This document shows, piece after piece, positions 32,905-57,910 of a stretch of 64,000 bases of DNA; within the stretch, counting starts at the first letter, position 1; every line of letters begins with the position of its first letter. This stretch comes from Octopus vulgaris. Taxonomy: Eukaryota. Location of the stretch: assembly GCA_951406725.2 (NCBI GenBank), contig OX597824.1:44950001-45014000 (forward strand), written 5' to 3'. A program made the position numbers and the translations under genes. The notes under the pieces were generated by a model. The model was not told where the DNA came from, searched no databases, and was given only the letters and a program-made list of their open reading frames with translations.

Positions 32905-32960
32905 TTCCACTGAAGAGGCAAAGTATTTCTTATGCCAAGTCAGAAACCCGGGATCTGGAA
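32905..32960 (+). ncRNA. Type I hammerhead ribozyme-like motif (imperfect)
   Basis: ttcca CTGAAGA ggca..tgcc aagtca GAAA cccggg a TC tggaa. Stem I is ttcca/tggaa, stem III is palindromic, with extra nucleotides relative to the consensus. Confidence 0.55.
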
Positions 32961-33639
32961 TTATACAGTAATTTTTGCTAGTTTATTTTGTCTTTTTGTC
33001 TTCTCTCCTGGTGCTGTATGAACATTTAATGTGGTTTTAGAGTCAGGTTCTGGCTGCTATTTTCAGCATGGTGGTATCTCTTAGATACCCTAAATAATAA
33101 TTTTAATATATATCTATATATATAAAAAGAAAAACATATACAGACAGCACTACATTCACACAAAAACATATGTACATGGTAGTGTTTCCTCCCGTTCTCT
33201 CTCTTTCTCTCCCCAAATCATTTACTCTCTCTATCATGCCACCAGATATCAACACACACACACACACACACACACACACACACACACACACACACACACA
33301 CAAACACACACATACACAAACACACACATACACACATACACACACACACACACACACACACACACACATACACATATATAAATAGAAAATCAAAGAATAG
33401 GGAAATAAAGAAAGCTTCTAACAATGCAGACATTTTTACAAAAAGACCTTTATATTTTGAGCTCAAAAAATTTCTGCATTGTTAGAAGCTTATTTCATTT
33501 CCCTTTTCTTTCATTTTCTACTTCTGTACTACAATGCTTCAAGCAAACTACAAAGCTCTTATATATATATATATATATATATATATATACCTTTCATCAT
33601 CTGACACAAGATCTCCTCCTCCAATGCCCCTTCCCCTCT

Positions 33640-34155
33640 CAAAATTCCTTGTCTTGCAAGTTACATGGTGATCCTGCTGGTGCTACTGCCCACGTAAAAA
33701 TCCACACTGTAACAGGGTTGACATTTGGAAGGACATCCAGCTGTAAAAACCATGCCAAAACTGACCTTGCCTGTGCTGGTACCATGTAAAAAGCATTCAG
33801 TCCACTCTGCAGAGTGGTTGATGTTAGGAAGGGCACCTAACTGTAAAAACCCTGCCAAAACTGACCTTGCCTGTACTGGTGCCATGTAAAGAACACTCAG
33901 TCCACTCTATGGAATATTTGGTGTTAGGAAGGGCACCCTGCTGTAAAAACTATGGCAAAACTGACCTCACCTGTGCTGGTGCCACATGAAAAGCACTCAG
34001 TCCACTCTGCAGAGTGGTTGGTGTTAGGGAGGTAAAAACCCTGCCAAAACAGACACAGTAGCCTGAAGTAGTCTTCTAGCTGGCTGGCTACTGTCAAACC
34101 GTCCAACCCATGCCTGCATGGAAGGCAGACATTAAATGATGATGATGATGATGAT
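33640..34155 (+). mobile_element. RTE-type 3' tail with ~100-bp internal tandem amplification
   Basis: Units at 33674-33770, 33771-33870, 33871-33970 and a partial at 33971-34050. Ends ccgtccaacccatgcc..taaa(tga)n. Confidence 0.8.
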
Positions 34156-34835
34156 ATATTGTTTAATAATAGCTTGACCCAGCTCCATGCAACTCAATAT
34201 TTTGTAGGCTCATAGAACTAACCTAATTCATCAGGCACCTGGAGATTAAATAACAGGAAGAAGCTAATTCAAGATGGCTTTAGCTGTTAGGCTGCTATTG
34301 GTCTATTCAGGCCACATGGTGTTATTGGTCTGAAAGTGATGTCAAATCTTATCTTTGCTCTTAGGCCCACGTGATTGGACAGGATGATGGTGGGTAACTG
34401 TCACCGCTATATCTGAAGATTGTGGTATGGTTTATTTAGCAACATCAGTTTGTTGCATTTGTTGCTGCATATGACAGAGTTGGGTGTTGTGGTAGGTTAG
34501 TGGAGAACTAAGACCATTGTGGAGACAGCTTTTCTATGATTTGTTAGTGCTAGGTTAGATCGTCAGCTTCTTATAGAAGTAACAGGGGAGTCAAATAACA
34601 TGCCCTTGAGTATGGGGCAGGCAAGCGTAAGTAATTAATACATGTAACTCTTACTAACTCTTCTTTCACTTGTCCACTCGTATATATATATATATATATA
34701 TATATATATATATATATATGTGTGTGTGTGTGTGTGTGTGTATTTCATTGGTAAAGCATAAATCTGAAAAAGAAGCACACTAAGTTATAGAGCAATACAC
34801 AATATAAATATAAAGTTAGATGAGGCCAGTTTATA

Positions 34836-34894
34836 GGATTACCCTGGGTTTCATGTCCATAAAGCATTTAGCTTTACAGCGTATCATCGGATCC
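34836..34894 (-). ncRNA. Type I hammerhead motif with mutated core
   Basis: Minus strand: ggat CCGATGA ..ttatggacat GAAA cccagg GTA atcc. The core has C in place of U4. Confidence 0.55.
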
Positions 34895-35498
34895 AAAAAT
34901 CTGTTGGCCTCTCTAGTGAGTAGTCTCTCTAGAATCTAGAGGAGGAAAGGGGATTGTCTCACTTTGGCTATCAATCGCCAGTGACCCTGTTATCCTGTGG
35001 GTTCCAATAGAGCAGCAGGAATTTCCTTAAATGCAAGCACAGTCCAAAGACCTCTGTTCTGGAGTTAAGAATGTTCCCTAGGTCGAGGGAGTCCTTTAGA
35101 ATCCTCACCCATTCTACTACATATAGTTTACAGTGCTGGTCCTGTTTATGTAGGGGCCTGGATTTTCTAGGATTCTTCATGATATTGTGTATGGAATCCC
35201 ATTGTCTTTCAGTTGCCATACATGGCTGGCTAATGACATAACATATTACTTTTCCAGTATCCTGAAGGAAGATATTGGTTGGAGAGGCATTGTTTGAACA
35301 TGTTCTTGGTGCTGTTTCTGTTGGTGTTGCCATTGCTGCTACCACTGTTGTTAGTACTGCTATTTTTGGTACTGGTACTGTTGGTGCTGTCTCTGCCAGT
35401 GTTGGTAATGGTGCTGTTGTTGTTGTTGTTATGGTCATCAGTCATTGATGGAGATACTGTCACCACTTGCTAGAGAGGCCTTAAGCCAATGAGTTTTG

Positions 35499-35557
35499 AG
35501 ATCTGATGATACACCATAATGTTACATGCTTTATGGATGTGAAACCCAGGGTAATCC
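35499..35557 (+). ncRNA. Type I hammerhead ribozyme motif
   Basis: gat CTGATGA t acaccataa..ttatggatgt GAAA cccagg GTA atc. Stem I gat/atc; stem II acaccataa/ttatgg(a)tgt; predicted cleavage after 35553. Confidence 0.7.
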
Positions 35558-55834: not shown

Positions 55835-56999
55835 TCTACTACATATGTGGAAAATCAGTGTGTTTGTTTGTGGCATTGTTAGCTAACTCCTCCTACATTG
55901 TTTTATTGATTTTGATGAAACTTGACACGTGAGTAGAACTCATGTCTAGAAACCTTGTGACATACTTAGATTGTTGAAAAAATTGATAATACGGTTCCTG
56001 GAAGGGACCTTTATATCAACCTCATATTGCTAATTTTTTTTAAAACACCCAAGGAAATAACCCTTAGCACTTGTACAATATTTTTTTTAAACACTCAAGG
56101 GAAATAACCCATTTCATTGTTTATGTTCAATTACTTTGAATATTGATTTTTTTGTGTGTCCTATTTTAAATTTTTGCAGACAATATTACTTTTATACTCT
56201 ATTTGACGTGTGAGTAGAACTCGTGTCTGGAATCCTCGTAACATAGATTGTTGAAAAGAAAACGATAATAAGGCCCTTCCAATGGATCCTTCCAGTTACT
56301 ACATATTACTAATATTTTATTTAAACAACCCAAGGAAAATAACCCATACCACCTGCAGATTTTAGCAAAGCGATCAATATTTGATTCTCACGATCAGCCG
56401 ACCTAAATCTGCATTTCACTACTCACAGTTTTGAACTTCTAAACATTATTATTGCACTTCTTTAATTTGAATCTTAAACATTAAAGACATCATTCATTCA
56501 TTTCTATATATACATACTTTTTTGAATGCCCAATAATTCTGCATTTTTGCAGTTACACTTTTTCCATGACAGTAGATAAATTTTTTATTCCACAACATAT
56601 CTGAAGTGGCTTCATGCAGGCATAGGGTGGATTTGATCCTTGATTACTAAATTTTACTTAACACTTCAACAGCGCTTTTCTCACGGTAAAACAATAGTTT
56701 TTCTGTGAATGACAGCAGTTATACATTTCCCAGATGCCTTCGCTAAGCAGAATAATGTCTTTGCCTCTCGCCAACCTCTCTCACCAATCTCCGACAATCT
56801 TTGTCGCCAACCTCCACAAACTTCTCTCGCCAACCTCCAACAATCACTTTCTCCTCCAGCTGAAAGTTTTTTGTACTTTTTTGCGATGGAAAATACATCT
56901 TTTGTGGCAGTTATAACAAAATTACTTTCTTATATCAGAGTATTAAGGCATTTCAATAGAACATCTTTACCCCCAGGAACTACTGGGTACACCAGCTGG
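55835..56999 (+). mobile_element. Non-autonomous Helitron (~1165 bp)
   Basis: A|TCtactacata start; 3' hairpin cccag-gaacta-ctggg, then CTGG|T. Internal ~150-bp duplication (~55920 vs ~56200). Shares tgatgaaacttgacac with the 21962 element. Confidence 0.75.
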
Positions 57000-57378
57000 T
57001 ATGTATATATATATATATGTTTGTGTGTGTGTGTAAGTTATGCATCAATTGATTTAATATATGCGTGTGTTTATATATATATATATATATATATATATAT
57101 ATATATGTATATATGTATATATATATATATATATATATATTAAGAAGAACTGTAATCAATGCTAGAGAAAATATATAAGTTGACTATGACAGGATTTGAA
57201 CTCAGAACAGGAAATGTCGGAACAAATGTCAGAAAGGAATTTTTCTAATGCTTAACTGTTCTGCCTTTCCTCCACCCAAATATGCACTCATGCATGCATA
57301 TATATATATATATATATATATATATATATATATATATATATATATATATATATATATATATATATATATATATATATC

Positions 57379-57588
57379 TGGGTGGCACGTAAAAGCGCGG
57401 GTGGCACGTAAAAAGCACCCACTACTCACGGAGTGGTTGGCGTTAGGAAGGGCATCCAGCCGTAGAAACACTGCCAGATTTGACTGGGCCTGATGAAGCC
57501 TTCTGGCTTCACAGACCCCAGTAGAACCGTCCAACCCATGCTAGCATGGAAAACGGACGCTAAACGATGATGATGATGATGATGATGA
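57379..57588 (+). mobile_element. Young (CpG-intact) RTE 3' tail in a (TA)n tract
   Basis: gggtggcacgtaaaa is duplicated at the 5' end; gagtggttggcgttaggaagggcatccagccgtagaaac..aacggacgctaaacgatgatgat. Confidence 0.85.
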
Positions 57589-57612
57589 TATATATATATA
57601 TATATATATATA

Positions 57613-57740
57613 GTTAATTAACTGTTCTGCCTTTCCTCCACCCAAACATGCACTCATACATACATATATATATATATATATATATATATATATGCATGAG
57701 TGCATATTTGGGTGGAGGAAAGGCAGAACAGTTAATTAAC
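57613..57740. repeat. 48-bp inverted repeat around a (TA)n spacer
   Basis: 57613-57660 vs the reverse complement of 57693-57740 (2 mismatches). A third, direct copy lies at 57252-57294. Confidence 0.9.
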
Positions 57741-57847
57741 TATATATATATATATATATTTAATTAATAAAACATATATCAGAAAAGAAGCACAGTCTAA
57801 AGAATAGAATAGTAATTGTTACAACAAAGAATTTGATATCTTGGCCA

Positions 57848-57910
57848 TAGAGTTACCCAAGATTTCATATACACAAAGCCAAAGCCTTGTGGACAGCTTG
57901 TCAGACTCTA
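57848..57910 (-). ncRNA. Type I hammerhead-like motif (related to the 34.8/35.5 kb motifs), core mutated
   Basis: Minus strand: tagagt CTGACAA gctgtccacaagg..ctttgtgtatat GAAA tcttgg GTA actcta. 6-bp stem I tagagt/actcta; G8 to A is consistent with CpG decay. Confidence 0.6.

Follow-up and report, generated by a model that had tools for sequence, protein, structure and literature searches.

Published descriptions of Penelope-like elements (PLEs) place a type I hammerhead ribozyme near the 3' end of the element and report 5'-truncated insertions into (TA)n, frequently accompanied by an inverted partner. Truncated PLEs leave behind single motifs and motifs on opposite strands, thousands per genome (PMC4209133). 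The Hydra clade of these elements is defined by CxxC and CxH motifs around a conserved E and N (Craig et al. 2021, PMC8557442), and File S2 of that paper contains Hydra hammerheads, including one from Octopus bimaculoides. For a PLE of Anolis, reverse transcription is described as starting a short way downstream of the hammerhead (PMC11167929). The present analysis concerns a stretch of 64,000 nucleotides from Octopus vulgaris (assembly GCA_951406725.2, contig OX597824.1, positions 44,950,001 to 45,014,000 of the forward strand), here called the window, in which eight previously noted motifs and a ninth prove to be genuine hammerheads of type I and fall into several families.

The interpretation favoured here, with a probability of roughly 0.88, is that one of these families, A, lies just past the broken 3' terminus of a Hydra-clade PLE, and that the other four likely represent the 3' ends of other PLEs, as remnants of pseudo-long terminal repeats (pLTRs). 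Most of what is found in the window would then be dead copies.

Nine type I hammerheads in five families

All eight motifs listed in the original prediction exist: each coordinate is, within about 4 nt, the left end of a CUGANGA...GAAA...UH series in type I layout. In each of them CUGANGA is separated from GAAA by a stem II region of 26-31 nt (57 at 47236); a self-complementary stem III links GAAA to UH, and stem I is open. The ninth motif, F, had been overlooked, lies outside the interval first considered and passes the strict descriptor introduced below. Residues follow the usual hammerhead numbering, and single core bases are assigned their customary roles. The core CUGANGA/GAAA/UH is exact in seven of the nine motifs (F, E, A2, B1, B2, B3 and C) and carries one substitution each in A1 (U4C) and D (G8A). 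Three helices surround it, helix I being open, as in type I hammerheads. Helix I is short and without loop 1, and the features of canonical fast motifs (G10.1-C11.1 and a loop 1-loop 2 contact) are not those seen here: a G10.1-C11.1 pair occurs only in C, and its place is taken by G-U in F and D, by U-A in B, and by an extra U followed by A-U in A.

Sensitive self-comparison sorts the motifs into five families, A (two copies), B (three copies), C, D and E/F (two copies), in line with the earlier statement that several families are present. The high local density that had been claimed is borderline: seven independent insertions lie within 31 of the 64 kb (P=0.053), which does not establish a local hot spot.

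The comparison with dinucleotide-shuffled controls that had been proposed was run within the 64-kb window, and the strict and medium counts exceed those of all shuffles. Three type I descriptors, which favour a self-complementary stem III and were designed after the motifs had been seen, were applied. The strict one matches three times (cores at 26963+, 36451+ and 38386-) and was without a match in 60 of 60 block-wise dinucleotide shuffles; the medium one adds 32910+ and 35503+, giving five matches against a shuffle mean of 0.017 (maximum 1); and the relaxed one gives five against a mean of 0.35 (maximum 4). A second, broader descriptor with an exact core, which admits minimal hammerheads and a U3-A8 core, finds five matches, one of them probably due to chance (10163+), against a mean of 0.15 (maximum 2) in 40 shuffles. 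Allowing one core mismatch raises this to seven, against 2.17 in 12 shuffles. The probable chance match at 10163 (+) is a single-copy variant with a U3-A8 core and 3-bp stems.

Two of the eight originally listed sites pass the strict descriptor and four the medium one, the others having core or stem-breaking changes; among these, 34836(-) and 38438(+) are 81-90% copies of motifs that do pass. For the whole set of nine, the medium descriptor is passed by five, and the remaining four are decayed homologues or partial. Standard annotation overlooks such motifs, as had been supposed, since a search of Rfam returned no hammerhead family among 113 window matches at E<=1, nor among 11 for B1 at E<=10. 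In folding against shuffled sequence, only D falls below z -2 (z -2.44), and the other eight lie between -1.44 and +0.14.

Family A and its Hydra-clade relic

Family A is present as a head-to-head pair of ends on opposite strands that are 81% alike. The first copy, at 34802-34924(-), contains hammerhead A1 at 34836-34894, and the second, inverted copy, at 35462-35591(+), contains A2 at 35500-35556 and is followed by (ATCT)n/(TA)n. Between the two, at 34971-35272(-), lies the relic of the C-terminus of a Hydra-clade PLE GIY-YIG endonuclease, interrupted by two stops and one frameshift; A1 begins about 80 nt after its stop codon. The Cys, Glu, Asn and CxH of the relic are positioned as in the definition of the Hydra clade. 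Compared by eye, and with the second Cys supplied by related contigs, it shows the traits by which that clade is recognised, a GIY-YIG endonuclease at the C-terminus in which CxxC and CxH surround the conserved E and N. Against the alignment row of Hydra-1_Obim (PMC8557442), 34 of 73 ungapped residues are identical when counted by eye, and the CxH and the RKFLL end agree with the DNA consensus of that element. The position of the hammerhead near the 3' end, the (TA)n-type target and the inverted truncated copy are likewise those of Hydra elements. The copy in the window is 5'-truncated, and the reverse transcriptase (RT) with its DKT motif and the CxCX5C linker are not part of it. Judged by its sequence, family A is a family other than Hydra-1_Obim and a candidate new family of the Hydra clade. 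Two protein matches to the relic were rejected as repetitive, unrelated proteins.

Related contigs from four public runs were aligned to 34745-35578 at 80% likeness; two DNA runs gave 1,376 and 1,422 contigs over this interval, some of them on its low-complexity part. The canonical U4 is found in 2,454 of 2,563 depth units (96%) of run X1, and the CCGAUGA of A1 is therefore private to the window copy. At both 35499 and 35520, the majority letter of the contigs re-forms a stem pair. Both stop codons of the relic are sense codons in related contigs, where the frame is open and includes the second Cys, and a segment coding for YIG lies between 35305 and 35309. In loose contig ends, N7 is U, A or C and the other core positions are unchanged, except for G5>A in one three-contig end, and stem I shows an A-U to G-U change. 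Several opposite-strand joints in related contigs represent other inverted copies of this repeated family. Relative to the one contig that is identical to the window, summed contig depth at the family A hammerhead is higher by a factor of about 250-270, a ratio that is no copy number in itself and suggests a few hundred close copies. Related family A copies also occur in runs X7 and X11, which were guessed to be RNA and say nothing on transcription. An apparent compensation between A1 and A2 at the base of stem II was discarded, as CpG decay would explain it equally well.

The other families and their probable origin

Hammerhead F (26958-27016, +) has an intact core, a G10.1-U11.1 pair, a fully palindromic stem III and the cleavage triplet AUA with H17 at 27011. 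It is homologous to the E site at 32905 (70% over 115 nt, E 1.3e-8). Hammerhead E itself (32904-32961, +) retains its core and a 6-bp stem I, and its stem II base and 15.2-16.2 pair are disrupted. The original prediction had stated that different sequences keep the same pairing. Between E and F, stem I shows one full compensatory change and two one-sided changes, one of these swaps being explicable as CpG decay, and the stem III centres, CCCGGG and CUUAAG, are both palindromes. Most differences within families in the window instead break pairs.

About 135 nt upstream of F, at 26828-26893(+), a weak Hydra-like relic of an endonuclease C-terminus shows the pattern N..E...CxH. A six-frame scan of the window for the Hydra C-terminal pattern gave two matches, before A1 and before F, both on the strand of the hammerhead. 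The pattern was defined post hoc, so that even at 0.01 matches per shuffled window this is weak; it hints at PLE parentage of E/F.

Family B consists of a solo end at 36409-36566(+) and a head-to-head pair at 38254-38579. The solo end carries the intact hammerhead B1 (36447-36502) with U10.1-A11.1 and GUA and is followed by (AT)n at 36578. The pair, an 88% palindrome, contains B2 (38335-38390, -) with an intact core and B3 (38438-38493, +), in which the stem II base and the stem III palindrome are broken; differences among the B copies are mainly pair-breaking changes in B3. Family C forms a head-to-head palindrome (74%) at 47090-47380 beside a long (TA)n. Its right side holds a decayed hammerhead at about 47235-47318(+), the site listed at 47236, in which the core and stem II are kept and stems III and I have decayed; its left arm keeps a CAGCTG stem III without a core. 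Hammerhead D (57846-57912, -) has G8>A in the core, an 8-bp stem I and a (TA)n about 108 nt after GAAA. We infer PLE parentage for B, C and D as well.

Adjacency to microsatellites, which it had been proposed to examine, was borne out in the window: a microsatellite lies within 120 nt after GAAA at five of the nine motifs, against a background of 14%, and all nine lie within 306 nt of one, against a background median of 815, paired copies not being independent. Head-to-head pairs on opposite strands occur in families A, B and C, one in each.

The source that had been named for the motifs, two PLE coding relics at 39820-40245 and 49600-51100, did not hold up. With 14 RT/GIY-YIG relatives, tblastn places their coding extents at 40099-40254(-), the C-terminal relic of a Neptune-type PLE endonuclease without a recognised hammerhead downstream, and at 50157-51093(+), a Neptune-type relic of RT, Cys linker and GIY-YIG with an internal deletion and no hammerhead recognised nearby. 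Neither has DNA homology to any motif family, and both were rejected as the source; decay may have erased a downstream motif. What stands of the proposal is a Penelope-like source in general, the demonstrable one being the Hydra-clade relic beside family A, which had gone unnoticed. Similarly, adjacency to GIY-YIG/RT fragments within the window holds for family A, at about 80 nt from its relic, and fails for both Neptune relics. At the microsatellite-side end of the Neptune region, 49655-49720(-) may be a very decayed hammerhead of minimal type (GAAA-CA-UU after a broken core), seen by eye and absent from a loose scan. The segment 28463-28524 matches the stretch that immediately follows the Neptune stop (40026-40087) at 70% over 64 nt; its endonuclease-end score of 37.9, against a shuffle maximum of 38.7, is borderline, and it is perhaps a third Neptune end.

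The arrangement in the window could be explained as follows. Between the hammerhead and the element end, where reverse transcription probably starts, there are about 30-110 nt. Almost every insertion should therefore keep one motif, and inverted ones two. Even strongly 5'-truncated insertions into AT-rich or microsatellite targets would retain the hammerhead, so that hammerhead density would track insertion density, and the usual inverted truncated copy would supply a second hammerhead on the opposite strand. In active parents, two motifs on a tandem transcript may pair through their palindromic stems III and cut after GUA/AUH, probably aided by the protein of the element, and this cleavage would trim the precursor RNA. 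In head-to-head fossils, each motif in a read-through RNA would be silenced by pairing with its antisense counterpart.

In A, B, E and F, the computed energy of the stem III self-duplex ranges from -9 to -14 kcal/mol, as against +0.4 to +6.4 kcal/mol for the monomer hairpin. Because stem III is thus unstable in the monomer but stable as a self-duplex, and the monomer hammerhead fold lies above the minimum, dimer or protein-assisted cleavage is predicted. This prediction fits the low, dimer-dependent activity and the protein-dependent activity described for such motifs (PMC4209133 and PMC11167929, respectively). In predicted read-through folds, the A and B pairs leave no motif base paired inside its own motif, so these head-to-head pairs would be silent; C has 22 such bases. 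F, B1, B2 and A2 could still cleave with a partner; the other five (A1, B3, C, D and E) appear damaged. The inactivity of the copies, like dimer cleavage, would follow from these models.

Several points weigh against this interpretation. Database searches with the Hydra relic protein returned no PLE and thus no independent confirmation, so the Hydra link rests on the comparison by eye and the related contigs. The core invariance of family A in those contigs rests on 40 of 220 variant rows. Self-duplexes are weak in B3 (-1.6 kcal/mol) and D (-3.0 kcal/mol), and the monomer hammerhead fold is 1.2-10 kcal/mol above the minimum-energy fold in all eight computed. A Neptune-like end suspected by eye upstream of B1 (about 36230-36320) was dismissed, being outside the top eight plus-strand scores and below the shuffle background of 31.5 +/- 2.8. 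The Anolis PLE was inserted in vitro without a need for hammerhead cleavage, and no RNA ends were observed at its cut site (PMC11167929), so that the trimming role is no more than putative. Lastly, the weak pattern before F is the only coding link outside family A: none was found in the window for B, C, D or E.

This lack of a relic is also what would be expected if B, C and D, and with them E/F, were solo non-autonomous non-LTR (non-long terminal repeat) retrozymes that spread via small circular RNAs with PLE enzymes. Molluscs carry retrozymes (PMC7229834), and retrozymes derive from pLTRs and can be monomers, according to the available part of a preprint (bioRxiv 10.64898/2026.07.22.740005). 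An identical stem III is found in canonical hammerheads elsewhere, at three metagenome loci described below. Such an origin is nevertheless improbable, since no head-to-tail tandem unit in the window holds a hammerhead, the pairs being head-to-head, the helices are not the canonical 6 bp and 4 bp, and the sequence shared upstream of the motif spans only about 30-45 nt.

The metagenome matches come from 9 of the 64 parts of the collection, where a generic pattern of the core with ACAGCUGU found 116 loci; stems I and II are present in 3 of 118 matches, and none is similar to the window or to Neptune proteins. The three loci, L004 1160-1193(-), L014 700-732(-) and L112, have canonical type I hammerheads with a 6-bp stem I, a G-C stem II base and a ACAGCUGU stem III. 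Each is single-copy with no PLE frame detected, which adds to the points against PLE parentage. The pattern of family B had no match in metagenome contigs.

It is more improbable still that some copies are functional ribozymes retained by the host to cut or regulate a host transcript. The cores of F, E, A2, B1 and B2 are intact, and F, B1 and B2 pass the strict descriptor, but, compared with related copies, those in the window have core or pair-breaking changes of their own, the motifs show the same decay as the repeats around them, a motif in an inverted pair would be sequestered, and no host exon was recognised in 60 of 193 candidate frames scanned and 11 more. That the motifs arose by chance in repetitive, AT-rich DNA, as the lack of an Rfam match, the unremarkable folding of eight of the nine (no better than z -2), the 0.35-2 chance matches per window of loose descriptors and the motif at 47236, which alone could be chance, might suggest, is scarcely credible given the strict and medium counts, the family structure, the position behind a PLE end and the match to Hydra hammerhead architecture, and it is already refuted for A, B and E/F by the descriptor counts and related contigs.

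Setting, abundance and comparison with known systems

The window has 36% GC and is rich in microsatellites and in repeats, among them LINE (long interspersed nuclear element), mariner, Helitron and integrase relics. A Helitron-like PIF1 helicase relic is seen at 2079-3331(+), and at 38700-39645 there is a repeat whose 102-bp tandem units end at 39626-39707, a part that it shares with 22264-22345. An integrase relic lies at 17608-17904(+), a mariner transposase relic at about 40500-41490(+), a LINE RT relic at 43283-45990(+) and a LINE-type end with a C2H2 finger at 35976-36197(-). A near-perfect 128-nt hairpin around a (TA)n centre (57613-57740), 44 nt of which are repeated at 57252-57295, accounts for spurious microRNA matches in Rfam. 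No tRNA genes were found in the window.

Five descriptor-passing motifs in 64 kb correspond to about 80 per Mb. A large and under-annotated ribozyme population in this genome, as originally suggested, is plausible, and large PLE-hammerhead populations in animals have already been published. Published hammerhead totals reach about 9,000 in Xenopus tropicalis and more than 6,000 in a coral; for the giant squid, 235 matches to hammerhead_1 in Rfam are given in the genome paper (PMC6962438). A literature search, with most subscription papers outside its coverage, found no genome-wide hammerhead census for an octopus. It is a tentative and rather doubtful proposition that this genome holds the densest hammerhead population of any animal, with tens to hundreds of thousands of type I motifs of the long-stem-II kind, invisible to Rfam and belonging to many Hydra-type PLE families. 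In that case the head-to-head pairs would be a further source of long double-stranded RNA, by which the ribozymes would be switched off. The window adds several unannotated hammerhead families, one of them tied to a putative new Hydra-clade PLE family, and indicates that counts based on Rfam miss such motifs in cephalopod-like DNA. The natural variants at the stem II base and the loop-less palindromic stems III are material for the issue of dimer or protein-assisted cleavage, and with it of the role of PLE hammerheads.

Compared with animal non-LTR retrozymes (PMC7229834; bioRxiv 10.64898/2026.07.22.740005), the window shows the same association of type I hammerheads with repeated non-coding sequence that descends from PLE ends, but it differs in the absence of head-to-tail units and of canonical 6-bp/4-bp helices, and family A keeps coding sequence. 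The minimal and variant motifs of metazoan PLE pLTRs (Cervera & De la Pena 2014, PMC4209133) share with those of the window a long helix II, a short helix I without loop 1, a palindromic helix III implying dimer folding, many families per genome, and an occurrence mostly as single motifs from truncated elements or as opposite-strand pairs 100-700 bp apart. Unlike them, the window motifs are not minimal (3-5 palindromic pairs versus 0-2), and the G10.1-C11.1 pair, highly conserved there, is restricted to C.

Another close system is that of the Hydra hammerheads of Craig et al. (PMC8557442). As in the window, these motifs are of type I and follow a GIY-YIG C-terminus, marked by CxxC and CxH around E and N, close to the 3' end, with a stem I of 3-7 bp, a near-palindromic stem III of 3-4 bp, an extra nucleotide or a non-G-C pair at the stem II base, and (TA)n targets. 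The sequences of the five families are absent from the Hydra table of that paper. The 3' untranslated region and hammerhead of family A differ in sequence from those of Hydra-1_Obim, the stem II regions in the window (26-31 nt, 57 in C) are longer than in the listed Hydra hammerheads, and stem III of B and F is a loop-less perfect palindrome. The window thus leaves the known distribution of these ribozymes unchanged and provides new hammerhead families, mostly as fossil copies, in a PLE-end arrangement that has already been described and is known in octopus too.

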